Under the pieces are notes generated by a model. It was not told the DNA's origin. It worked only from the letters and a program-made list of their open reading frames with translations, and ran no database searches. From a virus (taxonomy: Duplodnaviria; Heunggongvirae; Uroviricota; Caudoviricetes), in IMG/VR virus record IMGVR_UViG_2671181030_000005, positions 1 to 12,830 of that record: 12,830 bases of DNA; one strand, given 5' to 3'. Shown piece after piece: positions 1 to 12,830 of the stretch. The position numbers were made by a program, and so were the translations under genes. Every line of letters begins with the position of its first letter. Within the stretch, counting starts at the first letter, position 1.

Positions 1-933
1 ATGGACAACGACAAAATTGATCAACACAGCGACGAAATTGAAGTTGAGAGCGAAGAAAAAGAGCGTGGCAAAAAAATAGAAATAGATGAAGATCGACTCC
101 CCTCCCGGGCGATGGCAATTCATGAGCATATCCGCCAGGATGGTGAAAAAGAGCTGGAACGCGACGCAATGGCACTACTGTGGTCAGCCATTGCGGCGGG
201 TCTGTCGATGGGCGCTTCATTACTGGCAAAAGGGATATTTCATGTCGAACTGGAAGGTGTGCCGGGCAGCTTCTTGCTGGAGAATCTCGGTTATACCTTT
301 GGTTTTATTATCGTCATTATGGCCCGCCAGCAATTATTTACCGAAAACACCGTAACTGCGGTACTACCCGTCATGCAAAAACCGACAATGAGCAACGTTG
401 GCTTACTTATGCGGTTATGGGGCGTCGTGCTGCTGGGTAATATTCTCGGGACAGGTATTGCGGCGTGGGCATTTGAATATATGCCAATCTTCAATGAAGA
501 AACTCGCGATGCATTTGTCAAAATCGGCATGGATGTGATGAAGAACACCCCCAGCGAGATGTTTGCCAACGCGATCATTTCCGGCTGGCTGATCGCCACT
601 ATGGTATGGATGTTTCCTGCAGCGGGTGCGGCAAAGATTGTGGTGATTATATTGATGACTTGGCTTATTGCCCTGGGTGACACCACTCACATCGTTGTCG
701 GTTCTGTTGAAATCCTCTATCTGGTGTTTAACGGTACGCTGCACTGGAGCGATTTCATCTGGCCCTTCGCACTACCTACTTTAGCGGGGAACATCTGCGG
801 CGGCACCTTTATCTTCGCGTTAATGAGTCATGCACAGATCCGTAACGACATGAGCAACAAGCGCAAAGCAGAAGCACGCCAAAAAGCAGAACGTGCGGAA
901 AACATTAAGAAAAATGATAAAAACCCGGCATAA
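1..933 (+). CDS. yfdC: Formate/nitrite transporter (FNT) family inner-membrane protein YfdC
   Basis: 310-aa ORF filling the whole interval; multiple hydrophobic segments; sequence recalled as E. coli YfdC, the gene that precedes argW in E. coli. Window begins at its ATG. Confidence 0.9.
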   Translation: MDNDKIDQHSDEIEVESEEKERGKKIEIDEDRLPSRAMAIHEHIRQDGEKELERDAMALLWSAIAAGLSMGASLLAKGIFHVELEGVPGSFLLENLGYTFGFIIVIMARQQLFTENTVTAVLPVMQKPTMSNVGLLMRLWGVVLLGNILGTGIAAWAFEYMPIFNEETRDAFVKIGMDVMKNTPSEMFANAIISGWLIATMVWMFPAAGAAKIVVIILMTWLIALGDTTHIVVGSVEILYLVFNGTLHWSDFIWPFALPTLAGNICGGTFIFALMSHAQIRNDMSNKRKAEARQKAERAENIKKNDKNPA

Positions 934-968
934 ATGGCGAGGGTTTAAGCAATCGAGCGGCAGCGTAC

Positions 969-997
969 TTACCCCGCAGTCCATTAGCGGGTATACT
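969..997 (+). promoter_or_regulatory. Putative sigma70 promoter of argW (-35 TTACCC, 17-bp spacer, -10 TATACT, GC-rich discriminator)
   Basis: TATACT at 992..997 lies 11 nt upstream of the mature tRNA 5' end; weak -35 at 969..974; GC-rich catgccgc between -10 and the tRNA is typical of tRNA promoters. Motif-based only. Confidence 0.3.
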
Positions 998-1008
998 CAT
1001 GCCGCATT

Positions 1009-1083
1009 GTCCTCTTAGTTAAATGGATATAACGAGCCCCTCCTAAGGGCTAATTGCAGGTTCGATTCCTGCAGGGGACACCA
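1009..1083 (+). tRNA. argW: tRNA-Arg (anticodon CCU), argW, complete with encoded CCA
   Basis: 75-nt sequence GTCCTCTTAGTTAAATGGATATAACGAGCCCCTCCTAAGGGCTAATTGCAGGTTCGATTCCTGCAGGGGACACCA; cloverleaf with anticodon loop CU-CCU-AA and T-arm GGTTCGATTCC; matches recalled E. coli argW. Confidence 0.95.
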
Positions 1084-1199
1084 TTTATCAGTTCGCTCCC
1101 ATCCGTACCAGTCCGTAAAATCCCCAGAATATCAAGCCTCCCGGAAACTAACAGTTCGTCATGGTTCGCTTCAGATCGTTGACAGCCGCACTCCATGAC

Positions 1200-1245
1200 G
1201 GGTAAAAAGTGGATAAAATAATTTTACCCACCGGATTTTTACCCA
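1200..1245. promoter_or_regulatory. Cluster of GGGTAAAA-type repeats (two direct, two inverted) just upstream of and overlapping the int start; candidate arm-type recombinase or AlpA binding sites
   Basis: gggtaaaaa (1200..1208), ggataaaata (1211..1220), ttttaccca (1222..1230, inverted) and tttttaccca (1236..1245, inverted). The same motif recurs as a tandem pair at 11049..11070 at the other end of the element. Confidence 0.3.
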
Positions 1246-2402
1246 TGCTCACCGTTAAGCAGATTGAAGCAGCAAAGCCGAAAGAAAAACCATACCGCCT
1301 TCTCGATGGTAATGGCCTGTACCTTTATGTTCCTGTATCCGGGAAAAAGGTATGGCAGCTTCGCTACAAGATTGACGGTAAGGAGAAAATCCTGACCGTC
1401 GGAAAATATCCGCTTATGACTTTGCAGGAAGCAAGGGATAAGGCATGGACTGCGAGGAAAGACATCTCGGTTGGCATCGATCCGGTAAAGGCGAAAAAGG
1501 CTTCGTCTAACAACAATTCATTTAGTGCGATTTACAAGGAGTGGTACGAGCACAAGAAGCAAGTCTGGTCAGTAGGCTATGCAACTGAACTTGCCAAAAT
1601 GTTTGATGACGACATTTTACCCATCATCGGCGGCCTTGAAATTCAGGATATTGAGCCGATGCAACTGCTGGAAGTAATCCGCAGATTTGAAGATCGCGGC
1701 GCAATGGAGAGAGCCAACAAAGCCCGCAGAAGATGCGGCGAGGTTTTCCGTTACGCTATTGTTACTGGTAGGGCTAAATATAACCCGGCACCTGACCTTG
1801 CTGACGCCATGAAGGGATACCGCAAGAAGAACTTCCCGTTTCTTCCTGCAGACCAGATCCCGGCATTCAACAAAGCACTGGCAACATTTTCAGGAAGTAT
1901 TGTATCGCTCATTGCGACCAAAGTTTTACGCTACACAGCCCTAAGAACGAAAGAGCTTCGTTCTATGCTATGGAAGAACGTCGATTTTGAAAACAGGATT
2001 ATCACCATCGACGCCAGTGTGATGAAAGGACGCAAAATTCATGTGGTCCCGATGTCAGACCAGGTGGTTGAACTTCTCACTACGTTAAGCTCCATCACCA
2101 AACCAGTATCAGAATTTGTTTTTGCCGGGCGCAACGATAAGAAGAAGCCAATCTGCGAGAACGCGGTGCTACTTGTGATCAAACAAATCGGCTATGAGGG
2201 TCTGGAAAGCGGTCACGGATTCAGACATGAATTCAGCACGATTATGAACGAGCACGAATGGCCTGCTGACGCTATTGAAGTGCAACTGGCACATGCCAAC
2301 GGCGGATCTGTGCGTGGGATTTACAACCATGCTCAGTATCTCGATAAGCGCAGAGAAATGATGCAGTGGTGGGCGGACTGGATTGATGAGAGGGTGGCAT
2401 AG
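1245..2402 (+). CDS. intS: Tyrosine recombinase / phage integrase, P4-IntS type
   Basis: 385 aa from ATG 1245 (MLTVKQIEAAKPKEKPYRLL...); C-terminal catalytic region HGFRHEF ... LAHANGGSVRGIYNHAQY with the terminal Tyr; position directly 3' of a tRNA gene. Recalled as near-identical to E. coli K-12 IntS (CPS-53). The ORF track starts at a GTG at 1209; I prefer the ATG at 1245. Confidence 0.9.
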   Translation: MLTVKQIEAAKPKEKPYRLLDGNGLYLYVPVSGKKVWQLRYKIDGKEKILTVGKYPLMTLQEARDKAWTARKDISVGIDPVKAKKASSNNNSFSAIYKEWYEHKKQVWSVGYATELAKMFDDDILPIIGGLEIQDIEPMQLLEVIRRFEDRGAMERANKARRRCGEVFRYAIVTGRAKYNPAPDLADAMKGYRKKNFPFLPADQIPAFNKALATFSGSIVSLIATKVLRYTALRTKELRSMLWKNVDFENRIITIDASVMKGRKIHVVPMSDQVVELLTTLSSITKPVSEFVFAGRNDKKKPICENAVLLVIKQIGYEGLESGHGFRHEFSTIMNEHEWPADAIEVQLAHANGGSVRGIYNHAQYLDKRREMMQWWADWIDERVA

Positions 2403-2536
2403 CGCCACCTATAAACCGTGCAATAATCAAACTCACATCGCATCGTTGATGATGTATGTTATCACTCCTAATGCAGCAGATGTCTCACAGAGGGCGCCAT
2501 TCTGCAACCAATCCATTCCCAATTTATCAGATTAAC

Positions 2537-4627
2537 CTACATATTCACGCATGATATATGCTCAATAATCACTGTCATCCGCCCGCTTGCAGCGGTGGTT
2601 CCAGCGATTTTTTTTACAACTAAATTGTTTTCAGCAACTGTGACCACGATAGATCCAACGTTTGTTTGTGTTTTTACTCCAGCGACTGATTCTATATAAT
2701 ATGGCAATGATAACCCGAAGAACCAGTATCCTTCTGTGAATAGCTTTGCTGCATGCTCATCCCTGTTTGAGTTATACATTACAGATATTTTTACTGCCGT
2801 TTTTCCATTTGTTGTCTTTATTGGTATTAAAAGTGTTGTAGATTCATTTTCAGCTACGTCTGCAGTTACTGCATAGATGCGTTGAGATGTATCGGAATTT
2901 ACGTTAGTTAGCGTATCAAACCCTCTGCAATTACTTACTTGACGAAATAAAACATCAAGAAAAGTTGTAACCCCTGGCAATGGGTCAAGATAATACAATG
3001 GTGCGATATTTCCATCGCCAAGATTGAGGTTTTGCACCCGTACTATAGCCTTCACATACGCAGAGGAACCTCTGCTTATTTGAATTACAGCAGTTGGCAC
3101 CGTTCCTGCCATTCCTGACGACTGAATGTTTCTGAAGATAACCTCTTTGAAGAGATATACATTAAAATTTGTGTTTCCTGTATTGCTATACAGAAATCCA
3201 ACATTCTCTATTATGGCATTACATTTTATATTTTCAGCAATGTAACCATCATATGTATTCGGCGAGTTATTATAAAATGATACCAGACGAGAGATAATAT
3301 CTGACGGATCTTCGCAGTTGACGTCAATATTTCGCAAAGAAATACCTCGAAATGTCGGTGCTCCACTGACAAGACCACCTGAAACGATTGACTGTGGGGC
3401 TGCTCCGTCAGCATAGAAGCAACTAAGTCCGTCTAGAGAACCTCCTGCCTGCAAGTCTACTGCTGACTGCCCAGCAGCAACAGCAAAGGCCTGTGTGCGC
3501 CGCTCTACAATATTGCTCACCCGAGAGTTCATTATCTGTGATTTGACTGATCTCTTCTGGCAGTCTTCAAAATACGAATCACTAATATCAAATACTGCTG
3601 ATAAATAGTTAGGGGATGATGCATATATCCCATCCGCATCCTGATATGGTCCAACTCGGAATACTGAAATATTCCTAACATAGCAATATTCAAAGTTTTG
3701 AACCATAAACCCGCGACCAACATTAGAACCACCTGAGCTTGAAATATCATAAGCTGAGGAATCTGACAGCCTAATCTCTTTCCATCTAAACAATGAGCCT
3801 GCCGTAATATATGCAGCAGTTGATAATCCTGTGTCAATTGCTTCCCTAGCGTTTCTTCCAGAATAGCCTGAAATAGATATTTTTGCGTTGTTATCGGATG
3901 AAAGCGCATAGAGTAGCTTTGCAGCATTGTTCTTGCCGTCAATGGCAATATCCTCTATGGAAAGAACGGATGAGCACGTTATTTTTAAAACAAATGGACT
4001 TACTGCTCCAGTATAGATAATAGTTCCATTTCTTATTGTTGTTTTTTTGTTGAAAACAACACTAATCATCTCGCTTGTTTTAATTGTCATTCCAGACAGG
4101 TCGATAACATACCCATCATATCTATTTAGCAAATAGATTAATTTTTCTCCTTCATCTGTCCCATCACCAGTTATTCCTGCCGATGATGGCGTAACATAAT
4201 ATATAGCACTTTGAACTGTTCCACCCTGCTGAAGGGGGATCATATCCGCACCTTTTCCTTTCCCTGTGGATGTAATTTCCTTCCTTAACTGATCAGGGTC
4301 GTATTTCAGCACATTAGGGAAATAAAACTGCTGCGCACCATATGCATCATAAACAGCCATAGAGTGGCCTTGCACAGTTACGAACTTGGCAATCTGTCCG
4401 TTATATACAGGATAACCAGCGGCGTTAATGATGATTGGCTGCGAAACAGGAACGTGAGAACCATCCTCATTCTCCACATAAACCTGAATCTGGTTTTCAG
4501 GATTTACCGGGTCAGTGTCAATTTTACCGATATAAATTTTACCATTGGCAACCGCTTTAAAAGAACGCGCCATAGTGAAGAGTTGCGAAGGCATGCTTAC
4601 CACAACATTTGCGGTGATATCTGACAT
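2537..4627 (-). CDS. P22-like tailspike protein (gene 9 homolog) with conserved N-terminal head-binding domain and divergent receptor-binding domain
   Basis: 696 aa from ATG at 4627 ([46 protein letters not shown]...), closely matching the recalled P22 gp9 N-terminus ([46 protein letters not shown]...); the remainder diverges from P22. GGAG 7 nt upstream of the ATG. The ORF-track N-terminal extension to 4726 has no homology and is rejected. Confidence 0.85.
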
Positions 4628-4747
4628 TTCATTGCTCCAGACGATGATATGATGCAACCATGATGTGATTGCATACCGAAATGGTACTATTGAGTATTTA
4701 TCCAGTAGGTTACGATGCCATTCCACCCAACTGGTGAGGCATCAAGG

Positions 4748-5014
4748 ATGTACAGCAAATACGATGAGGCGCAGTTTCACTTGAGACTTCCGCATGAACT
4801 CCACGCGAAAATTAAGCAGCGTGCGAAGATGAATAACAGATCTCTGAACTCAGAGATAATTGCAGCGATTGAAGAATCGTTGGCTAAACAAAGCTCTGCA
4901 TCCGTTTACATTGATGATGCAGAGCGTATGGCAGAACAACAATCTGATATGGTTAAGAAAATGGTATTTGAAACGCTTAAGACCATGTATAGCAATAATA
5001 AAAAGGAAACATAG
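4748..5014 (+). CDS. mnt: Mnt-like ribbon-helix-helix repressor (P22 immI-type)
   Basis: 88 aa from ATG 4748 (MYSKYDEAQFHLRLPHELHAKIKQRAKMNNRSLNSEIIAAIEESLAK...AERMAEQQSDMVKKMVFETLK), aligning with recalled P22 Mnt (…PHFNFRMPMEVREKLKFRAEANGRSMNSELLQIVQDALSK…AERLADEQSELVKKMVFDTLK). GAGG 8 nt upstream. Divergent from the tailspike gene as in the P22 immI region, but no arc or ant is present. Confidence 0.8.
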   Translation: MYSKYDEAQFHLRLPHELHAKIKQRAKMNNRSLNSEIIAAIEESLAKQSSASVYIDDAERMAEQQSDMVKKMVFETLKTMYSNNKKET

Positions 5015-5084
5015 AAATCTAGTTTCCGGCTAAAATGGCATAGCCTTCATGATATCCTGTGAAAAACTAAGGAGAGTTAACCAT

Positions 5085-5570
5085 ATGAAAAAATCACTGT
5101 TAATTATCCCGCTTCTGCTGGTTGGATGCGCAAAAGTAAGTGACTATCAAGCAAGTTGCGAACAACGCTATCAAAAGCTTAGCGATATGGCTAATTGCCT
5201 TGATGCCAGTGTGAAGAACGACTCACGCATGGCATCAGCACCAACACCTAAGCTGTATGTCCTTGCTGCAAAGATGCTCGGGCAAGGTGTCGATGAAGGC
5301 AAGATAAGTGACGCACAGGCAAGACTTGAGCTTCAGAATCTTTATGTTCAATTACAAAGCCAAGAACAAGCCCAACAAATAGCACAAAGCCAAGCATTCC
5401 AGCAGGCTTTATTGAATTATCAGGCTGTAAACACAATGCAAGCGATCGAGCAAAAAGCGCGCCAGCCTGTTATAACTCAACCTTACCCAACACGCGTTGA
5501 CACATATACAAACTGCAATTCAGGATTTGGAAACACGGTAACATGCAACAGTAGCAGTAACATCAGATAA
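5085..5570 (+). CDS. Predicted lipoprotein with Gln-rich region, unknown function (occupies the sieA-like position between mnt and the ejection-type genes)
   Basis: 161 aa from ATG 5085; signal peptide MKKSLLIIPLLLVGC with lipobox LVGC; AAGGAG 10 nt upstream; Q-rich segment QLQSQEQAQQIAQSQAFQQALLNYQ. No family recognised. Confidence 0.7.
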   Translation: MKKSLLIIPLLLVGCAKVSDYQASCEQRYQKLSDMANCLDASVKNDSRMASAPTPKLYVLAAKMLGQGVDEGKISDAQARLELQNLYVQLQSQEQAQQIAQSQAFQQALLNYQAVNTMQAIEQKARQPVITQPYPTRVDTYTNCNSGFGNTVTCNSSSNIR

Positions 5571-6018
5571 CAATCAGCAAAGGTACCTTTGCAGAGGTGG
5601 CGCGCTGTTCGACTGTTGAGTCTGTCACCGGGTCACCCGCCCATTGAGCAAAGCGATCATCAACGTAACCGCGGCCTTCAGGTCCTGGCGTATATTCACC
5701 ACGCTTTGCCTTCATAACGTTGCCGGGACCGTCGTGATAAGCCTGAAGAGCGTCACGCCAGTTACCAAACTGCTGGTACATCTTTGCCAGATAGCGCGCG
5801 CCAGCGTCAGCTTGATATTCGGGGTTTTGCATTTGCTCATCGGTATAACCCATATCACGCCATGTCCCAGGCATGACCTGAGTCAATCCTACAGCCCCGG
5901 CGGAGCTTACTGCGGCAGGGTTGTAAGAAGACTCCTTGGCACCCAGTGCAGTCATCAACCCTTCTGGCACACCGTAACGTGCGCCAGCCTGCTCTAACAA
6001 ATCACGGTAATTAGCCAT
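5563..6018 (-). CDS. Lytic transglycosylase (SLT domain) protein, no signal peptide
   Basis: 151 aa; SLT catalytic motif region GAKESSYNPAAVSSAGAVGLTQVMPGTW and downstream AYHDGPG; start ATG follows, in the same frame, the TAA stop of the upstream 381-aa ORF. Confidence 0.8.
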   Translation of the reverse strand: MANYRDLLEQAGARYGVPEGLMTALGAKESSYNPAAVSSAGAVGLTQVMPGTWRDMGYTDEQMQNPEYQADAGARYLAKMYQQFGNWRDALQAYHDGPGNVMKAKRGEYTPGPEGRGYVDDRFAQWAGDPVTDSTVEQRATSAKVPLLIVI

Positions 6019-7164
6019 TTACTGCCCCAAAGATGGAAGATATCCGTAGCGATTAATGAAGTCGATTGACAGCTCGGGGTGCTGCTTCAGGTAATCTATA
6101 GAAGCCTGAGGCGCTTCCACTCGCTTGATACCGTTTTGCTGAACGTACTTACCAACCGCCTCATTACGCTTCTGGTTGAGCGTGTTCAGGATGACGCCAG
6201 CGTTGCGACGAAAGGACTCCTCGCTCTGCGAGTTCTGCAGCGAACCAACAGCCTGGTCGAGCTTTTTGCCCTCGGCATCAGAAAGTGCGCCCATGCCTCG
6301 CATGGCCTGAACCGCTGTCAGGTATGCTTGTGATTTAAAGGTATCAAGTCGTGCCTGAGTGTCTGCAGCCTGTGAGCCTGGAACGTTGGGGATTACTCCA
6401 CGTAAGCCTGTAATGCTCTTAAGTGAAGGAGAACTAACGATATCGTTCAGAGTGAACATGCTGGTTGTGAGGGTGTTGATGCCGTCTTTGTAGCCATCAT
6501 TTAGCGCTTGCTGCTTCTGCTGCAACTGCTGGTTGTTGGCTGCTATGCGGCTCTGTATTTCCTGGCGCTTCAGGTCGTTAGTTTCTGCTGATAGCATCCG
6601 GTCAAGGCGCTTATTTTCGTTGTTAATGCGGTTTGTTTCTGCGTCCAGATTAATGCGCTGCTGACCTAAATTCGCCTGGATATCTTGTCCGCGCATTGTG
6701 ATTGCCTGATTCCGAGCGGCGGTTTGCGAATCCAGATCCTGACCGCGCATGGTAACCTGGCGACCCTGCATTTTATCCTGTAGGTCAAAGTATTTTTCGG
6801 GCCCGAGACTGTTCATCCCCAGGTGATCGACAAATTCGACGAACTGCCGCGGGTTCTGTTGGTACATCTGAGCGACGTCATGAGGATTAACGCCAACACG
6901 AGCTAACTCACCGGCGTTGTTTTGCAGCCATGATTGCATTGCTTCTGGAGACGATGACGCAAGGCGTGCGCCAGCCGCTAAGGTGCCGATAGAATTACGC
7001 TGGTCTTCATCAATGAATCCCATGCCTTTACGAACGGATTCAATCTGGTCTGGATATTGAGTAATCTCGTTAGCAACGCGCATGAAACCATCTTCGGTAT
7101 CTGCCACGCGATGCTCCACGACCTCCAGTTGAGGCCTGTAATCAGCTAACTTAACGACGCCCAT
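6019..7164 (-). CDS. Gln/Asn-rich phage structural protein, candidate ejection (DNA-transfer) protein; function uncertain
   Basis: 381-aa ORF, long uninterrupted; low-complexity coiled-coil-like Q/N-rich middle; lies where P22-like phages place ejection genes, upstream of the immI and tailspike region; directly followed in frame by the SLT ORF. Family assignment is positional inference, not motif-proven. Confidence 0.5.
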   Translation of the reverse strand: MGVVKLADYRPQLEVVEHRVADTEDGFMRVANEITQYPDQIESVRKGMGFIDEDQRNSIGTLAAGARLASSSPEAMQSWLQNNAGELARVGVNPHDVAQMYQQNPRQFVEFVDHLGMNSLGPEKYFDLQDKMQGRQVTMRGQDLDSQTAARNQAITMRGQDIQANLGQQRINLDAETNRINNENKRLDRMLSAETNDLKRQEIQSRIAANNQQLQQKQQALNDGYKDGINTLTTSMFTLNDIVSSPSLKSITGLRGVIPNVPGSQAADTQARLDTFKSQAYLTAVQAMRGMGALSDAEGKKLDQAVGSLQNSQSEESFRRNAGVILNTLNQKRNEAVGKYVQQNGIKRVEAPQASIDYLKQHPELSIDFINRYGYLPSLGQ

Positions 7165-7312
7165 GTTTCACTCCTGCTTTGGCTAGTCTGTAAACACCAA
7201 CAAGGCGCTCTGCGAACGCCCTGTTATTTGCTGCGGCTACCACTAATCCCTCAGGTGAATCAGGGTGTCGAATCTCTTCTTTTTCCTGGTATTTCTTACG
7301 ACGTTTTGTCAT
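7151..7312 (-). CDS. Small basic ORF (53 aa), possible deletion-junction fusion ORF
   Basis: ATG at 7312 with AGGAG 7 nt upstream; MTKRRKKYQEKEEIRHPDSPEGLVVAAANNRAFAERLVGVYRLAKAGVKHGRR; overlaps the start of the 381-aa gene by 14 nt; sits 32 bp downstream of the cII-like stop. Below the 60-aa cutoff of the ORF track; found by manual translation. Confidence 0.3.
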   Translation of the reverse strand: MTKRRKKYQEKEEIRHPDSPEGLVVAAANNRAFAERLVGVYRLAKAGVKHGRR

Positions 7313-7344
7313 AATTACTCCTGTGGATTGATCCAGTAATTCCC

Positions 7345-7641
7345 TCAGAATTGCATATCAATTTGCTCAGAATCCTCGGTGGCAGCCGGGGATTTTTTCT
7401 TTGTGATTCCATCCAATGCATACTTAAAAGCCCTGCTAATCGGACTGATGTCTGATGCCATTCCGAAAGCACACAAGACCGAAGCAATAAATCTCCAGTC
7501 CGTTCTGCTTATCTTCGATTCATGACAGCCAATCATCTTTGCCAGACCGCGCTGGGTAAGCGTTGACAGGTTGATGAGTAAATCAGTTTCAGCGCGATCA
7601 ATTTCTCGCTGTGTTGGCTTGCTATAACTTGCTTGTGTCAT
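7345..7641 (-). CDS. cII: CII-family transcriptional activator (lambda CII-like)
   Basis: 98 aa; C-terminus TKKKSPAATEDSEQIDMQF resembles recalled lambda CII C-terminus (TNKKRPAATERSEQIQMEF); helix-turn-helix-like core ...GLAKMIGCHESKISR...; located immediately downstream of cro on the same strand, as in lambda. Confidence 0.7.
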   Translation of the reverse strand: MTQASYSKPTQREIDRAETDLLINLSTLTQRGLAKMIGCHESKISRTDWRFIASVLCAFGMASDISPISRAFKYALDGITKKKSPAATEDSEQIDMQF

Positions 7642-7725
7642 TTGTTAATTTTCCAATAGTGAATAGTTAGTTGAAAGGTATGCGTGGAAACGCATATGGC
7701 CTTAGTTGGTCAGATATCTTGGGGC

Positions 7726-7740
7726 TCGCTTTGTCAGCGA
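7726..7740 (-). promoter_or_regulatory. nutR-like boxB hairpin (TCGCT-GACAA-AGCGA on the minus strand) between cro and cII
   Basis: 5-bp stem with GACAA pentaloop, the loop I recall for P22-type boxB; a boxA-like CGCTCTTT lies upstream on the same strand (about 7766..7774). Motif-level call. Confidence 0.4.
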
Positions 7741-7778
7741 CGTAGGACGAATGTCCATTGTGAAAAGAGCGGTGTTAC

Positions 7779-7979
7779 TTATGCAGTTGTTTTTTTGTTA
7801 CTTGGGAAGGGCTTTATTTCTTCCGCATAAACGCTTCCATCAGCGTTTATAGTTAAAAAAATCTTTCGGCCTGCATGAATGGCCTTGTTAATCGCGCTTT
7901 GATATACGCCGAGATCTTTAGCCGTCTTGGTTTGCCCAAAGCGTATTGCATAATCTTTCAGGGTTATGCGTTGTTCCAT
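7779..7979 (-). CDS. cro: Cro repressor, lambda type
   Basis: 66 aa [66 protein letters not shown]; differs from recalled lambda Cro at about two positions (M12I, V55I); AAGGAGG 7-8 nt upstream of ATG. Confidence 0.95.
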
Positions 7980-8002
7980 ACAACCTCCTTAGTACAGGCA
8001 AC

Positions 8003-8069
8003 CATTATCACCGCTAGAGGTAAAATAGTCAACACGCACGGTGTTAGAAGTTTATCCCTTGCGGTGATA
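8003..8069. promoter_or_regulatory. Lambda-type right operator region: OR1 (8006..8022), OR2 (8030..8046), OR3 (8053..8069) with divergent PR (toward cro) and PRM (toward cI)
   Basis: Three 17-bp operators: TATCACCGCTAGAGGTA, CAACACGCACGGTGTTA, TATCCCTTGCGGTGATA; PR -35 TTGACT and -10 GATAAT on the minus strand; layout as in lambda. Confidence 0.85.
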
Positions 8070-8076
8070 GATTTAA

Positions 8077-8793
<717 letters not shown>

Positions 8794-8824
8794 TTGTTTT
8801 ATTTTTCACGTAATAGGATGATTT

Positions 8825-9166
8825 ATGACACAATTTCAACTTGCATTAATCGCTAGAGAAGTTGATGGAGAAGTCATCCATCTTCGCACCAAAGACGGAT
8901 ACATCAATGCCACCGCGATGTGCAAGTCTGCGGGGAAGCTACTTGCTGACTATACACGACTAAAAACAACACAAGATTTTTTTGATGAATTATCACGCGA
9001 TATGGGGATTCCCATATCGGAGTTAATTCAATCATTTAAAGGCGGAAGAGCAGAGAATCAAGGGACTTGGGTTCATCCAGACATCGCAATTAATTTAGCT
9101 CAGTGGCTATCTCCAAAATTTGCAGTGCAAGTATCGAGATGGGTGCGTGAGTGGATGTCAGGTTAA
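8825..9166 (+). CDS. KilA-N domain protein (N-terminal part of a probably larger ancestral gene)
   Basis: 113 aa; KilA-N/Bro-N-like features (…DGEVIHLRTKDGYINATAMCKSAG…GTWVHPDIAINLAQWLSPKFAVQVSRWV); AGGA 6 nt upstream; sits downstream of cI where lambda has rexAB. Its TAA stop is in frame with the next ORF. Confidence 0.7.
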   Translation: MTQFQLALIAREVDGEVIHLRTKDGYINATAMCKSAGKLLADYTRLKTTQDFFDELSRDMGIPISELIQSFKGGRAENQGTWVHPDIAINLAQWLSPKFAVQVSRWVREWMSG

Positions 9167-9205
9167 AGAGCGCCTGCCGAACTCCCTATCCACCTTAAGC
9201 GGTAT

Positions 9206-9584
9206 ATGACAAACCGAGGCAGAGTTCCTCATACGCACTTTTCTATGCTTAATGAACTGACGTTTAACTTGGTTGCGCCACTTGAACAGGCCGGATATAC
9301 GCTGCCAGAAAAAATGGTCCCTGATATTTCAGAGGGTAGGGTTTTCTCGCAATGGCTCCGTGACAACCGGGGGGTTGAGCCGAAGACATTCCCAACATAT
9401 AACCATGAGTACCCAGATGGCCGGACATTCCCGGTACGTCTATACCCAAACGAATATTGCAGATTTCAAACAATACTTCAACGAAGTGTGGCTGCCTCAG
9501 TACGCTCCTAAATATTTTGCTGAACGAGACCAAAGGGCATTGACGTTGATTGAGAAAATCATGCTACCTGACCTTGATTCCTAA
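9206..9584 (+). pseudogene. Disrupted ORF: continuation of the KilA-N gene, carrying an in-frame stop (9164..9166) and a frameshift near 9450..9460
   Basis: ORF 9206..9511 is in the same frame as the KilA-N ORF, separated by a single TAA; a second overlapping ORF in another frame runs to 9584 and ends just before a terminator hairpin. ATG 8825 to stop 9584 is 760 nt (3n+1), which fits one extra base in an ancestral 252-codon gene. No convincing RBS before 9206. Confidence 0.5.
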
Positions 9585-9592
9585 ATGTTATT

Positions 9593-9614
9593 CCCGGCCA
9601 CAGAGCCGGGTTTT
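9593..9614 (+). terminator. Rho-independent terminator ending the cI operon
   Basis: Stem CCCGGC / GCCGGG (9593..9598 and 9605..9610) with 6-nt loop, followed by TTTTCTTT. Confidence 0.6.
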
Positions 9615-9770
9615 CTTTGCCTCACGATCCCCCTCACCCAAGAACACATAACCAATTGTATCTATTTGAAAATAAATAGATACAACTCACTAAACATAGC
9701 AGTTCAGATCTCTCACCTACCAAACAATGCACCACTGCAAAAAATAAATTCATATAAAAAACATACAGAT

Positions 9771-9833
9771 AACCATCTGCGGTGATGAATTATCTCTAGC
9801 GGTGTTGAAATAAATACCACTGGCGGTGATACT
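9771..9833 (+). promoter_or_regulatory. Lambda-type left operator region: OL3 (9771..9787), OL2 (9791..9807), OL1 (9815..9831) with PL (-35 TTGAAA 9805..9810, -10 GATACT 9828..9833)
   Basis: AACCATCTGCGGTGATG, TATCTCTAGCGGTGTTG, TACCACTGGCGGTGATA; 17-bp spacer between -35 and -10; matches recalled lambda OL/PL apart from single-base differences. Confidence 0.8.
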
Positions 9834-9902
9834 AAACACATCAGCAGGACGCACTACTCACCAGGGCGGTGAATATACAACGATTCAAATATGAATCTAC
9901 GG

Positions 9903-9917
9903 CGCTGACAAAGCGCA
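9903..9917 (+). promoter_or_regulatory. nutL-like boxB hairpin (GCGCT-GACAA-AGCGC) in the PL leader
   Basis: Perfect 5-bp stem with GACAA pentaloop about 62 nt downstream of the predicted PL start; matches recalled P22-type boxB. No N-like (Arg-rich) ORF follows. Confidence 0.45.
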
Positions 9918-9979
9918 ATAACCAAAGTGAACTTTGGGGTGAATGCAGAAGCTAACCTTCTCGGCGGAGGCGCTTTGCA

Positions 9980-10273
9980 ATGATTACGCTAAGCGAAATG
10001 CTTCGCTCATATAAACCAGATGAACACACTAAGGACGCTAACGAAACAAACGCTGGTTGGATAAGCTGTAGTGAGCGAATGCCGAACGATAAACAGTATG
10101 TTTGGTGTTGGGGTAAGTCTTACGGCTGGACTGAGTGCGATACCTTCGAAGGGTATTACGATTGGTCGAGAAACAAATGGTGGGCAGTTACTGACGATGG
10201 GGAAGAACCGGCATCGAAAGTAACCCACTGGATGCCGCTACCAGAACCGCCTCAGGAGGTTAACCGTGGCTAA
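9980..10273 (+). CDS. DUF551-like phage early protein
   Basis: 97 aa; GGAGG 9 nt upstream; Trp- and Cys-rich with C-terminal VTHWMPLPEPP, a motif I associate with DUF551 proteins of lambdoid early-left operons. Confidence 0.7.
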   Translation: MITLSEMLRSYKPDEHTKDANETNAGWISCSERMPNDKQYVWCWGKSYGWTECDTFEGYYDWSRNKWWAVTDDGEEPASKVTHWMPLPEPPQEVNRG

Positions 10274-10304
10274 CCTGCAACTTGCCGTAAAAGGTGAATA
10301 ACAA

Positions 10305-10360
10305 TCCTCGCACTCGCGGGGATTTCTTTTATCTGAACTCGCTACGGCGAGTTTTGTTTT
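10305..10360 (+). terminator. Tandem Rho-independent terminators downstream of the DUF551-like gene
   Basis: Hairpin 1: TCCTCGC / GCGGGGA (one G-U pair) with loop ACTC, then TTTCTTTT (10305..10330). Hairpin 2: AACTCGC / GCGAGTT with loop TACG, then TTGTTTT (10336..10360). Confidence 0.6.
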
Positions 10361-10373
10361 ATGGAGACAAGAA

Positions 10374-10718
10374 ATGTCAGATTTGGCTATGAAGGTTTTG
10401 AAATGGCAATCAACTGGCGATGTCGGCATCAGTAGCGCAACTCTTGCCTCAATCGCATGTGGCCTGAAAAAGAATATCTATGGTCATCACTTCGGCGCTC
10501 CCCATGACGCAGACGATTTCCAACGATGCGTTGCGCTTGTTGAGCAGATTCCAGAAATCAGAGATTCATTCGACAAGGTTGCAAAGCGCGTTCCGGCATT
10601 CAAAGGAATCCTCAACGAATGGGATTCCCTAGTTGCTCTGTTGAAGTCGGAAATGAAGATACACGGAAACAAAGCACCAGAGACTTACAGAAGAATCAGA
10701 GAGCTACGCAAGGACTAA
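10374..10718 (+). CDS. Hypothetical protein, 114 aa, no recognised family
   Basis: GGAG 7 nt upstream of ATG; uninterrupted ORF with ordinary amino-acid composition (MSDLAMKVLKWQSTGDVGISSATLASIACGLKK...); bracketed by terminators on both sides. Confidence 0.6.
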   Translation: MSDLAMKVLKWQSTGDVGISSATLASIACGLKKNIYGHHFGAPHDADDFQRCVALVEQIPEIRDSFDKVAKRVPAFKGILNEWDSLVALLKSEMKIHGNKAPETYRRIRELRKD

Positions 10719-10788
10719 CCATAAAATAACACCGCCTCACACTCGATGATGCCTGTTCATTGCTCAATGATATCCAGACCTACCATCG

Positions 10789-10808
10789 CCGCATCAATGC
10801 GGTTTTTT
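10789..10808 (+). terminator. Rho-independent terminator
   Basis: Stem CCGCA / TGCGG with loop TCAA followed by TTTTTT (to 10808). Confidence 0.55.
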
Positions 10809-10816
10809 ATTGCCTG

Positions 10817-10834
10817 ATTTGCAGGTTCGATTCC
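10817..10834 (+). repeat. Partial direct repeat of the argW T-arm region (16 identical bp, TTGCAGGTTCGATTCC)
   Basis: Matches argW positions 1054..1069 exactly; flanks diverge on both sides. Confidence 0.6.
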
Positions 10835-10853
10835 CTATTCGGAGATAGCACTC

Positions 10854-11054
10854 ATGCAACACGAACTACAGCCTGATTCACTGGTTGATTTGAAATTCAT
10901 CATGGCCGATACTGGCTTCGGTAAAACCTTCATCTATGATCGGATTAAGTCCGGAGACCTTCCAAAAGCCAAAGTTATCCACGGGCGAGCAAGATGGTTA
11001 TATCGTGACCATTGTGAATTCAAAAATAAGCTCTTAAGCCGCGCCAATGGGTAA
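10854..11054 (+). CDS. AlpA-family small DNA-binding protein (excisionase / recombination directionality factor candidate)
   Basis: 66 aa MQHELQPDSLVDLKFIMADTGFGKTFIYDRIKSGDLPKAKVIHGRARWLYRDHCEF...; matches the AlpA/Xis-type HTH pattern; GGAG 9 nt upstream; located at the element end opposite the integrase. Confidence 0.75.
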   Translation: MQHELQPDSLVDLKFIMADTGFGKTFIYDRIKSGDLPKAKVIHGRARWLYRDHCEFKNKLLSRANG

Positions 11055-11070
11055 AATAGCGGGTAAAATA
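11049..11070 (+). repeat. Tandem direct repeat GGGTAAAATA-GC-GGGTAAAATA; candidate arm-type binding sites
   Basis: Two identical 10-mers at 11049..11058 and 11061..11070, overlapping the AlpA-like stop codon; same motif family as the repeats at 1200..1245. Confidence 0.35.
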
Positions 11071-11122
11071 TTTCTCACATCTAAAAAATACCATTCCAAT
11101 CAATCCCCTGCCGCTTCAAGTA

Positions 11123-11140
11123 GATGTCTGCAGGGGACAC
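11123..11140 (+). repeat. Partial direct repeat of the argW 3' end (CTGCAGGGGACAC); candidate attR core of the element
   Basis: 13 identical bp matching argW 1068..1080, with GAT two bases upstream also matching; sequence beyond differs from that following the intact tRNA. Confidence 0.6.
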
Positions 11141-11582
11141 TAGATACCCTTCATACGAAATCTACCTTCACCCCGTAAAAGATGGGTTTGGCAGCACACT
11201 TGCCTTATATCTACTCATTTTTACTGCAACAGGTTGAAATCTCAGCACTGTCAGAAAGCGCTGATGACTAAACAGCCCTGGGCCGGGCGATGTAACCATC
11301 ACACAGAATCCTGATAGCGAAATATGGCGTGACTCGATACTTCACTCCGCAATGCATTCCTTGATGAATTCGCAGGACCGTGATACACGGGACAGGTCGC
11401 TGAATGACGACAATGTCCTGGAAATCAGCGAACCGCGCATCTGAAGTACATTTGAGCGACTGTACCAGAACATGAATGAGGCGTTTGGATTAGGTGATTA
11501 TTAGCAGGGCTAAGCACTTTAGTATTATTATTTTCCGGTTGAGGGATAGGGAGATATCGACAACAACCGGAAAAGTTTACGT

Positions 11583-12830
11583 CTATATTGCTGAAGGTAC
11601 AGGCGTTTCCATAACTATTTGCTCGCGTTTTTTACTCAGGAAGAAAATGCCAAATAGCAACATCAGGCAGACAATACCCGAAATTGCGAAGAAAACTGTC
11701 TGGTAGCCTGCGTGGTCAAAGAGTATCCCAGTCGGCGTTGAAAGCAGCACAATCCCAAGCGAACTGGCAATTTGAAAACCAATCAGAAAGATCGTCGACG
11801 ACAGGCGCTTATCAAAGTTTGCCACGCTGTATTTGAAGACGGATATGACACAAAGTGGAACCTCAATGGCATGTAACAGCTTCACTAATGAAATAATCCA
11901 GGGGTTAACGAACAGCGCGCAGGAAAGGATACGCAACGCCATAATCACAACACCGATAAGTAATGCATTTTTTGGCCCTACCCGATTCACAAAGAAAGGA
12001 ATAATCGCCATGCACAGCGCTTCGAGTACCACCTGGAATGAGTTGAGATAACCATACAGGCGCGTTCCTACATCGTGTGATTCGAATAAACCTGCATAAA
12101 AGACAGGAAAAAGTTGTTGATCAAAAATGTTATAGAAAGACCACGTCCCCACAATAAATATGACGAAAACCCAGAAGTTTCGATCCTTGAAAACTGCGAT
12201 AAAATCCTCTTTTTTTACCCCTCCCGCATCCGCCGCTACGCACTGGTGATCCTTATCTTTAAAACACATGTTGATCATCATAAATACAGCGCCAAATAGC
12301 GAGACCAACCAGAAGTTGATATGGGGACTGATACTAAAAAATATGCCGGCAAAGAACGCGCCAATAGCATAGCCAAAAGATCCCCAGGCGCGCGCTGTTC
12401 CATATTCGAAATGAAAATTTCGCGCCATTTTTTCGGTGAAGCTGTCAAGCAAACCGCATCCCGCCAGATACCCCAGGCCAAAAAAGAGCGCCCCCAGAAT
12501 TAGACCTACAGAAAAATTGCTTTGCAGTAACGGTTCATAAACGTAAATCATAAACGGTCCGGTCAAGACCAGGATGAAACTCATACACCAGATGAGCGGT
12601 TTCTTCAGACCGAGTTTATCCTGAACGATGCCGTAGAACATCATAAATAGAATGCTGGTAAACTGGTTGACCGAATAAAGTGTACCTAATTCCGTCCCTG
12701 TCAACCCTAGATGTCCTTTCAGCCAAATAGCGTATAACGACCACCACAGCGACCAGGAAATAAAAAAGAGAAATGAGTAACTGGATGCAAAACGATAGTA
12801 CGCATTTCTGAATGGAATATTCAGTGCCAT
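11583..12830 (-). CDS. cscB: Sucrose:H+ symporter CscB (LacY-family MFS permease)
   Basis: 415-aa ORF whose ATG is the last three bases of the window; MALNIPFRNAYYRFASSYSFLFFISWSLWWSLYAIWLKGHLG... recalled as CscB of the chromosomal csc sucrose regulon (E. coli W / EC3132 type); 12-TM-like hydrophobic profile. Confidence 0.9.
   Translation of the reverse strand: MALNIPFRNAYYRFASSYSFLFFISWSLWWSLYAIWLKGHLGLTGTELGTLYSVNQFTSILFMMFYGIVQDKLGLKKPLIWCMSFILVLTGPFMIYVYEPLLQSNFSVGLILGALFFGLGYLAGCGLLDSFTEKMARNFHFEYGTARAWGSFGYAIGAFFAGIFFSISPHINFWLVSLFGAVFMMINMCFKDKDHQCVAADAGGVKKEDFIAVFKDRNFWVFVIFIVGTWSFYNIFDQQLFPVFYAGLFESHDVGTRLYGYLNSFQVVLEALCMAIIPFFVNRVGPKNALLIGVVIMALRILSCALFVNPWIISLVKLLHAIEVPLCVISVFKYSVANFDKRLSSTIFLIGFQIASSLGIVLLSTPTGILFDHAGYQTVFFAISGIVCLMLLFGIFFLSKKREQIVMETPVPSAI

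Follow-up and report, generated by a model that had tools for sequence, protein, structure and literature searches.

Apparent remnants of two adjacent ejection protein genes at an in-frame TAA-ATG joint in a P22-like prophage of Escherichia coli

The closest described counterpart of the locus analysed here is found in Shigella phage Sf101 (KJ832078). Its gene 12 encodes a 443-aa 'DNA injection protein' and its gene 13 a 911-aa 'transglycosylase'; the two lie in the same order and orientation and meet at the same junction, ...TTGGGGCAG TAA ATG GCTAAT...; IME10, APC_JM3.2, Dewey, Huey and phiKp_30 are likewise among the closest relatives. Sf101-type phages have both genes in full within a complete late operon, with gp7 upstream and the tailspike downstream, whereas our locus retains only codons 97-443 of the first gene and codons 1-145 of the second. 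The gp20-type part falls into one family with P22 gp20 (Sf6 gp12), namely PF16928, 'DNA/protein translocase of phage P22 injectosome', and the next gene occupies the position of P22 gp16 (Sf6 gp13). P22 and Sf6 gp16 are said to be without a transglycosylase domain (PMC8954989). Residues 188-901 of Sf101 gp13, its C-terminal body, share 94% identity with a downstream-gene protein that has no SLT domain (L068).

In the T7 gp15/gp16 ejectosome (PDB 7K5C, 7EYB), gp16 is built like the gp16-position protein, with a lytic transglycosylase at the N-terminus and a long body behind it. However, the two T7 proteins, at 747 and 1318 aa, are far larger, and the SLT fragment described here shows only a weak similarity to T7 gp16 residues 11-126 (E=2.7e-4), confined to the SLT domain. 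A sequence search found no solved structure of a gp20 homolog. In K1E and K1-5, gp35 is a gp15-like protein with lysozyme activity on the same polypeptide (PMC8954989), so tunnel proteins with a peptidoglycan hydrolase on one chain do occur in nature; the hypothetical 533-aa fusion considered below would resemble such a protein.

As a whole element, the locus resembles KplE1 (CPS-53) of E. coli K-12, a P22-like remnant of ~10 kb at the same argW site (tRNA-Arg CCT next to yfdC) with intS at attL and torI at attR. The IntS/TorI recombination module of KplE1 has been described, and KplE1 is without a cI module (PMC2951348). The cargo differs, as our element carries a lambda-type cI/cro/cII immunity region, a tailspike gene, mnt, a lipoprotein gene and the two ejection-gene fragments. 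The window referred to throughout is the whole analysed stretch of 12,830 nt, positions 1 to 12,830 of IMG/VR record IMGVR_UViG_2671181030_000005; its features are collected in Table 1.

Table 1. Positions of the features discussed, numbered along the window
Feature	Position	Strand	Remarks
tRNA-Arg	1009-1083
Defective prophage, KplE1-type recombination module, at tRNA-Arg(CCT) argW	1064..11140	.	~10 kb
att core direct repeat	1064-1081 and 11123-11140
intS	1209-2402
Convergent lipoprotein gene	5049..5570	+	lipobox LLVGC; phrog_6067 E=2e-110
SLT ORF	5563..6018	-	151 aa; ATG at 6016-6018, TGA at 5563-5565
Deletion junction 2 and read-out tail	5563..5597	-	6 foreign codons PLLIVI to TGA at 5563-5565
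5' fragment, gp16-position ejection protein gene (Sf101 gene 13, 'transglycosylase')	5583..6018	-	codons 1-145, complete SLT catalytic domain by alignment, ES motif E29-S30
TAA-ATG boundary of gp20-type gene and SLT gene	6016..6021	-	same joint in 51/51 SLT-type loci
381-aa ORF	6019..7164	-	TAA stop at 6019-6021
3' fragment, gp20-type ejection protein gene (Sf101 gene 12 / IME10 gene 20)	6019..7063	-	codons 97-443 and TAA stop
Deletion junction 1	7061..7063	-	in-frame join; 3-nt microhomology, TAC on minus strand, common to O and gp20-type gene
5' fragment, lambdoid replication gene O	7061..7164	-	start codon and first 35 codons (MGVVKLADYRPQLEVVEHRVADTEDGFMRVANEIT)
torI	10854-11054

The TAA-ATG joint and its counterparts in other phages

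The 381-aa ORF, which is rich in Gln (10.8%), ends in TTG GGG CAG TAA, and the SLT ORF opens with the very next codon, ATG. A first-pass annotation had pointed out that the two ORFs share a frame and that the span 5563..7164, at 1602 nt, would read as a 533-aa protein if the TAA were a sense codon; these coordinates were confirmed, the span amounting to 534 codons. Such a joint in frame is not improbable, because a zero-nucleotide gap makes the frame automatic. In the late operon of Sf101, from gene 6 to gene 13, the gaps are a multiple of three at four of the seven junctions (9, 3, 9 and 0 nt).

We surveyed about 95 loci, drawn from genome contigs and IMG/VR, for a sense codon in place of the TAA. 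According to its annotation, Sf101 gene 12 stops at 11530 and gene 13 begins at 11531, and the junction sequence is identical to that of the window. Across the survey, TAA was directly followed by ATG in every one of the 51 loci whose downstream gene is of the SLT type, and a sense codon was seen at the TAA site in none of them. These loci spanned gp20 identities to Sf101 of 61-100% and five different flanking sequences, with the TAA kept while its flanks varied (CAG, GGT or GGC before it; GCT AAT, GCA ACT or GCA AAT after the ATG). In 37 further loci, the downstream gene was without an SLT domain (mostly 665 aa) and the two genes overlapped out of frame as TAATG.

The search for a fused protein gave a consistent picture. 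Among the best 120 matches to the concatenated query, none was a fused gp20-SLT protein: the matches covered at most 71% of the query, in the gp20 part only, were typically 443-446 aa long and never contained PF01464. All eight homolog sequences inspected end at ...GYLPSLGQ or earlier. With two-gene homologs in the survey and none of these matches spanning the junction, the suggestion of a single 533-aa protein is refuted by the criterion that the first-pass annotation itself had set. A protein search with the 145-aa SLT fragment returned only matches of up to 251 aa and missed the known parents of 576-922 aa, and it is uninformative on fusions.

These data bear on the idea that a point mutation to TAA divided the gene for an ancestral ejection protein of at least 533 aa, one that had its SLT domain at the C-terminus. 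The in-frame geometry is all that speaks for it. Against it stand the 51 loci without a sense codon, the retention of TAA despite differing flanking codons, the same stop in the functional phages Sf101 and IME10, and the lack of a fused protein among the best 120 matches. We therefore regard a nonsense-disrupted gene, which had been offered as an explanation, as next to impossible.

Programmed readthrough would let some ribosomes pass the TAA and yield a minor gp20-SLT fusion in the intact phage and perhaps here. With the in-frame zero gap conserved in every SLT-type locus, readthrough would yield a continuous fusion, and K1E gp35, in which a peptidoglycan-hydrolase domain is carried on a gp15-like protein (PMC8954989), indicates that this architecture is viable in principle. 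Unlike in K1E, however, a tunnel-hydrolase fusion was not found in the window's lineage, either among the best 120 matches or in the 51 SLT-type loci. The stop is TAA without exception in these loci, and TAA is the least leaky stop codon in E. coli. Further arguing against readthrough, a tRNA search of the window found no suppressor tRNA, and the downstream gene has its own initiation signals: an SD-like GGGG lies 6 nt 5' of the SLT-gene ATG in the window, within the final gp20 codons, and every junction variant has GGGG or GGAGG 4-6 nt upstream of this ATG. In relatives whose downstream gene has no SLT domain, the two genes overlap out of frame, so a fusion is dispensable in the family at large. 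In-frame gaps are frequent along the Sf101 late operon, and in the window both partners are truncated and the virion genes are gone. Readthrough, which the first-pass annotation had kept as an option, is highly improbable, as the homologs are two genes with the same stop-start arrangement. We give as little credence to its extension, in which the in-frame zero gap would be conserved in Sf101-type phages because a rare gp20-gp16 fusion, made by readthrough or re-initiation, tethers the tunnel protein to the transglycosylase as a built-in part of the ejectosome, the window being a truncated trace of it.

The remaining option of that annotation, two tightly coupled genes, proved right: the homologs are two genes joined by TAA-ATG in 51 of 51 loci and in the Sf101 annotation. 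The zero gap, together with the SD-like GGGG or GGAGG in the last gp20 codons, would fit translational coupling. Between tightly packed phage genes, an in-frame stop-start joint is no evidence for recoding or gene disruption, which removes a false lead.

Two truncated genes and their deletion junctions

By its alignments, the 381-aa ORF is a deletion chimera in which codons 1-35 of gene O are fused in frame to codons 97-443 of the gp20-type gene. Window positions 7350..7061 are 100% identical to HK97 cII-gp53-O over 290 nt (megablast), the N-terminus of the ORF is identical to HK97 O up to residue 35, and residues 1-36 match PHROG replication-initiation O-like families. The O fragment provides the start and the ribosome-binding site, with an upstream AGGAG as a good start context. 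From 7063 to 5583, the window is 98.7-99.6% identical to Sf101 and IME10, beginning at nt 288 of the gp20-type gene and running to nt 436 of the SLT gene. The position of junction 1 is based on a three-way alignment and on the two megablast matches, which overlap at query positions 288-290.

Consistent with this, the 381-aa ORF matches the gp20-type family profile (PF16928 Inj_translocase, 105.5 bits, cutoff 29.7, E=4e-30), but only at profile positions 87-217 of 218, whereas intact Sf101 gp12 covers 1-217; phrog_2534 aligns at positions 98-435 of 435 (E=1e-140). The ORF is not a complete gp20-type protein, which would have ~431-471 aa and its own N-terminus, as 35 residues of O stand in place of residues 1-96, and RefSeq remarks 'missing N-terminus'. 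The virion-assembly order gp7-type, gp20-type, gp16-type is present in Sf101, whereas in the window cII, gp53 and the O fragment lie upstream.

Homologs longer than 443 aa were considered as C-terminal fusions and rejected; they are instead N-terminal deletion chimeras. One of them, P0003, is a gp7::gp20 fusion (BLASTP), P0001 and P0002 look, by sequence, to be fusions of this kind too, and P0018 and P0024 carry other N-terminal domains.

The SLT ORF aligns as a deletion remnant as well, consisting of codons 1-145 of its parent gene followed by six codons of unrelated spacer. Pfam SLT (PF01464) matches residues 7-110 (E=1.6e-26, 92.6 bits, cutoff 21.3), which bears out the earlier domain assignment, and the domain lies at the extreme N-terminus, as in the T7 gp16-like architecture. 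In an alignment to residues 453-560 of E. coli Slt70, KESSYNP stands opposite QESAWNP, the Glu of which we take to be the catalytic residue of Slt70. The match to phrog_21143 is limited to positions 1-145 of 576. Homology ends after codon 145, so that the long C-terminal body (>400 aa) of a parent that measures 576-922 aa in relatives is absent; RefSeq remarks 'missing C-terminus'. Neither the O'::'gp20 chimera nor the restriction of the SLT ORF to the first 145 codons of this parent had been noticed in the first-pass annotation.

The far side of deletion 2 is marked by the convergent lipoprotein gene, which overlaps the final 8 nt of the SLT ORF. This gene is 94.6% identical at the nucleotide level to its counterparts in phages Gally and vB_EcoP-720R6, where it lies between a gp16-type gene and mnt. 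The Gally match starts at window position 5597, whereas the Sf101 match runs as far as 5583; between these points (5583-5597), the SLT gene and the spacer downstream of the lipoprotein gene show imperfect similarity (CCTCTGCAaAGG..TAC).

Alignments and locus survey together establish the homologies, the breakpoints, the conserved TAA-ATG and, among the best 120 matches and about 95 loci, the absence of fused homologs. Nothing found in this analysis contradicts the explanation that both ORFs are what is left of two separate late genes, neighbours in a P22-like prophage (Lederbergvirus, Sf101/IME10-type), and that the TAA-ATG is a normal and hence ordinary gene boundary, which we consider very probable. 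Intact phages such as Sf101 and IME10 encode the 443-aa gp20-type protein and the larger gp16-position protein back to back. The former would be the ejection protein of the periplasmic tunnel, by analogy the counterpart of T7 gp15; the latter, 576-922 aa long in close relatives, begins with ~145 residues of SLT lytic transglycosylase, an arrangement known from T7 gp16. The products would be two separate polypeptides, packaged in the virion and then ejected. Two illegitimate deletions would then have gutted the prophage in one E. coli lineage. The first would have joined O codon 35 to gp20 codon 97 via the 3-nt microhomology, by chance in frame so as to create the 381-aa ORF, and would have removed everything from O to gp20, that is, the replication, lysis, packaging, head and gp7 genes. 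The second would have linked the SLT gene, at its nt 436, with spacer DNA past the convergent lipoprotein gene.

The host prophage and the fate of the fragments

The element carries intS by attL and the tRNA-Arg gene, torI by attR and a repeat of the tRNA 3' core, as expected of the KplE1 (IntS/TorI) type. Its order is attL core, intS, tailspike, mnt/arc, lipoprotein, SLT', O'::'gp20, gp53, cII, cro, cI, a broken bstA-like gene, a DUF551 fragment, torI and attR core. A search of its ORFs, Pfam matches and RefSeq annotation found no coat/head, portal, terminase, gp7, lysis or replication genes. The cI/cro/cII control region, upstream of both ORFs, appears intact. Identical DNA is present in E. 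coli EC2641, where IS3 interrupts the tailspike gene and RefSeq already calls both ORFs partial pseudogenes. The chimeric arrangement was seen in one of 5426 complete E. coli genomes.

Protein products from the two fragments are possible, judging from the complete SLT domain and the good start context of the chimera. At most, the fragments may be transcribed from pR, a putative promoter by analogy to lambda, upon inactivation of the intact cI repressor. We infer that both are non-functional, because no virion can be built and the chimera is without the first 96 residues of gp20. By inspection, the N-terminus of the SLT ORF, MANYRDLLEQAGARYGVPEG, shows no hydrophobic signal-like stretch, in agreement with the earlier remark that a signal peptide is missing. 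Access to peptidoglycan would take a signal peptide, a lipobox or virion delivery; the ORF has no hydrophobic signal and the prophage no virion genes. The SLT fragment, having no export signal, would therefore be unable to reach murein.

An alternative is that the chimera, the 151-aa SLT fragment or both are kept for the benefit of the host, for example as an SOS-inducible murein hydrolase or to block ejection by superinfecting P22-like phages. Both ORFs are open and lie downstream of the apparently intact cI/cro/cII region, the SLT catalytic domain is complete with its Glu-Ser motif, and the 3' portion of gp20 also survives in further prophage remnants from the databases (P0001-P0003, P0018 and P0024). 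However, the occurrence in a single complete genome gives no sign of spread or retention, and the 99.6% identity to free phage over 1481 nt points to a recent deletion rather than long maintenance. Moreover, the SLT fragment without a signal peptide has no route to the periplasm, and its neighbours are decaying, with the bstA-like gene broken and IS3 in the EC2641 tailspike. PADLOC defence models matched neither of the two ORFs nor the lipoprotein. Domestication is thus very unlikely, though we would not set it quite as low as readthrough. The locus documents the recent decay, by two deletions, of a P22-like prophage at argW.

The first-pass annotation was also right to favour a virion-borne or injected SLT enzyme. 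Of wider use, a sizeable group of Lederbergvirus phages carries a T7-gp16-like N-terminal transglycosylase on the gp16-position protein, which is a feature of the intact phages and not of the remnant.

Two abutting genes at a conserved TAA-ATG joint

The first-pass annotation described a Gln-rich ORF and an SLT-domain ORF on the minus strand, separated only by TAA-ATG, and this arrangement was confirmed. The 381-aa ORF (6019..7164, 10.8% Gln) ends in TTG GGG CAG TAA, the codon right after the stop (ATG, 6016-6018) starts the 151-aa ORF (5563..6018), and the joint span is 1602 nt, divisible by three. The 151-aa ORF carries an SLT lytic transglycosylase domain (PF01464, residues 7-110, E=1.6e-26) and its N-terminus is, as described, without signal-like character.

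Such a joint had raised the possibility of a single 533-aa protein, of a nonsense-disrupted ejection protein or of stop-codon readthrough. Using a protein query in which the part resembling gp20, a P22-like ejection protein, was concatenated with the SLT part, we found no junction-spanning homologue: the best 120 matches, mostly 443-446 aa, covered at most 71% of the query, i.e., the gp20 part, and PF01464 was present in none of them. All eight match sequences inspected stopped at ...GYLPSLGQ or earlier, and the longer matches were N-terminal deletion chimeras (gp7::gp20 in database protein P0003; other N-terminal domains in others).

Loci were then gathered by gp20 alignment, 13 from one-genome-per-species contigs and 80 from IMG/VR, and their junctions were analysed by script. 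TAA was directly followed by ATG in 51/51 loci with an SLT domain starting the downstream gene, a set that takes in Sf101, IME10 and one E. coli prophage (gp20 identity to Sf101 61-100%). Sf101 gene 12 runs to 11530 and gene 13 begins at 11531; their joint reads as in the window (TTGGGGCAG TAA ATG GCTAAT). Because the flanks differ among diverged loci (ATTGGAGGT TAA ATG GCAACT; ATCGGAGGC TAA ATG GCAAAT), stop and start are each conserved. None of the 13 contig and 80 IMG/VR loci had a sense codon in place of the stop. Judged by the refutation criterion that came with the first-pass annotation (homologues consistently split into two genes with this stop-start arrangement, or none across the junction), the single-protein, nonsense and readthrough readings fail on these loci and on the best 120 matches. 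A functional low-level readthrough fusion in intact phages, the residual novel possibility, is extremely improbable.

SLT-type loci carry an SD-like GGGG or GGAGG 4-6 nt upstream of the ATG. The abutting stop and start with the embedded SD would fit translational coupling of two proteins obliged to interact; a gp16-gp20 interaction has been argued for (PMC10883804). An overlapping, out-of-frame TAATG was present in 37 loci with an SLT-less downstream gene (mostly 665 aa), and in remoter relatives the genes overlapped by ATGA or lay a short distance apart. In-frame gaps are frequent in the Sf101 late operon: of the seven junctions between genes 6 and 13, four have gaps divisible by three.

Origin of the two ORFs

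We traced both ORFs by megablast against phage genomes, which split the region cleanly. One part, 7350..7061, matches HK97 and many Stx phages at 100% identity and takes in the end of cII, gp53 and the opening 104 nt of replication gene O. The other, 7063..5583, shows 98.7-99.6% identity to the Lederbergvirus phages Sf101, IME10, APC_JM3.2, Dewey, Huey and phiKp_30, from nt 288 of the gp20-type gene to nt 436 of the next gene. Because of this split between HK97-type and Lederbergvirus DNA, the 381-aa ORF is an in-frame chimera of O residues 1-35 and gp20 residues 97-443; at the joint the parents have TAC alone in common. Three independent results agree with a chimera: residues 1-36 match PHROG O-like families, the phrog_2534 match begins at profile position 98, and Pfam Inj_translocase is matched at positions 87-217 only, compared with 1-217 in the intact Sf101 protein.

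Further chimeric ORFs in the database (P0001-P0003, P0018, P0024) join the same gp20 3' part to differing N-terminal partners, namely gp7 (P0003, confirmed) or PF11651- or PF16532-bearing proteins. This suggests repeated independent internal prophage deletions that spared the att-proximal late end.

The 151-aa ORF is, by alignment, residues 1-145 of a far longer protein (911 aa in Sf101, 797 aa in IME10, 576-922 aa elsewhere) plus a foreign tail, and phrog_21143 (576 positions) matches it over positions 1-145. Past codon 145 it consists of spacer sequence that phages Gally and vB_EcoP-720R6 carry beyond a convergent lipoprotein gene; the change-over lies at the imperfect similarity CCTCTGCA-AGG-TAC, and six foreign codons precede a TGA. 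On identical DNA of E. coli EC2641, RefSeq labels the two ORFs 'phage DNA ejection protein, missing N-terminus' and 'lytic transglycosylase domain-containing protein, missing C-terminus'.

Ejection proteins with an N-terminal SLT domain

The nearest relatives of the gene pair are Sf101 genes 12 and 13, within the family frame of P22 gp20/gp16 and T7 gp15/gp16. The pair already has GenBank annotation, and RefSeq lists the fragments as pseudogenes. In intact phages, the gp20-type protein would correspond to T7 gp15, which forms the periplasmic tunnel, and the gp16-position protein to T7 gp16; its SLT domain would cleave murein while DNA is ejected and its C-terminal body would serve inner-membrane steps (roles drawn from PMC8954989, PMC10883804). 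The N-terminal domain aligns with residues 453-560 of E. coli Slt70, Glu-Ser motif included (E=2e-11), and with T7 gp16 residues 11-126 (E=2.7e-4). In its C-terminal body the Sf101 protein shares 94% identity with an SLT-less gp16-position protein (locus L068).

Many Lederbergvirus phages and prophages carry the SLT domain at the N-terminus of the gp16-position protein, with mosaic C-terminal bodies (576-922 aa). The 797-aa SLT ORF is unannotated in the IME10 GenBank record. A 576-aa version occurs in loci L006, L007, L022, L024, L025 and L029, S. flexneri and E. coli chromosomes included; it shares 99% identity with the first 573 residues of the 911-aa Sf101 protein, equals phrog_21143 in length, and represents a truncation that recurs or else a distinct short allele.

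A defective prophage at argW

The window contains a ~10-kb defective prophage integrated at tRNA-Arg(CCT) argW, flanked by yfdC and a csc-type sugar permease gene. Its KplE1-type recombination module, made up of intS on the attL side and torI on the attR side, is common to HK620, CUS-3 and Sf6 (PMC2951348), and the whole element is a KplE1-like remnant, likewise at argW.

Features of the argW prophage in the window and SLT-bearing genes of related loci
Feature	Position	Strand	Remarks
tRNA-Arg(CCT) argW	1009-1083
intS	1209-2402		attL side
Tailspike	2537-4726	-	P22 head-binding domain
mnt/arc-type repressor	4715-5014
Lipoprotein gene	5049-5570	+	lipobox LLVGC, phrog_6067
gp53 homolog, cII, cro, lambda-type cI	7151-8793
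bstA-like gene	8825-9584	+	broken
DUF551 fragment			between broken bstA-like gene and torI
torI	10854-11054		attR side
attR copy of tRNA 3' core	11123-11140
SLT-bearing gp16-position gene, Sf101 gene 13	L001 6046-8781
SLT-bearing gp16-position gene, IME10	L002 4957-7350
SLT-bearing gp16-position genes, further loci			L019-L063

The prophage contains no replication, lysis, terminase, portal, scaffold, coat, gp4/10/26, gp14 or gp7 genes, and virion production from it would be impossible. The ejection functions of both ORFs are probably lost as well: the chimera lacks the first 96 gp20 residues, which would count toward this loss, and the SLT fragment, its catalytic domain complete, would have no route to the periplasm. 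Both fragments could be transcribed from a putative pR once cI is inactivated, as in lambda. E. coli EC2641 (NZ_JALDNN010000001.1) is 100% identical to the window apart from an IS3 in its tailspike gene, and among 5426 complete E. coli genomes the chimeric arrangement was found in no further genome. This single-genome distribution and the 99.6% identity to free phage indicate recent decay, not retention.

The EC2641 tailspike gene (locus L004, 9224-12665) is split by this 1351-bp IS3-family element, which is absent from the window, where the tailspike reading frame is unbroken. What is disrupted by nonsense and frameshift in the window is a bstA-like abortive-infection gene, not the gp20/SLT pair. 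A KilA-N ORF just past cI (8825..9166, plus strand) is terminated by an in-frame stop, its frame resumes at 9206..9511 with a match to PADLOC BstA profile positions 160-226 (E=4e-12), and profile positions 236-272 lie in a different frame (ORF 9273..9584, E=8e-4).

The intact lipoprotein gene, without a match in Pfam or PADLOC, lies between the gp16-position gene and mnt, the position of sieA in P22. It also occurs in phages Gally, vB_EcoP-720R6 and VSe13, and is a candidate prophage-expressed moron. Just upstream of torI, and distinct from the attR core, an exact 16-nt second copy of a tRNA-Arg T-arm segment (TTGCAGGTTCGATTCC; 10819-10834 = 1054-1069) may have been left by an earlier or a tandem integration.
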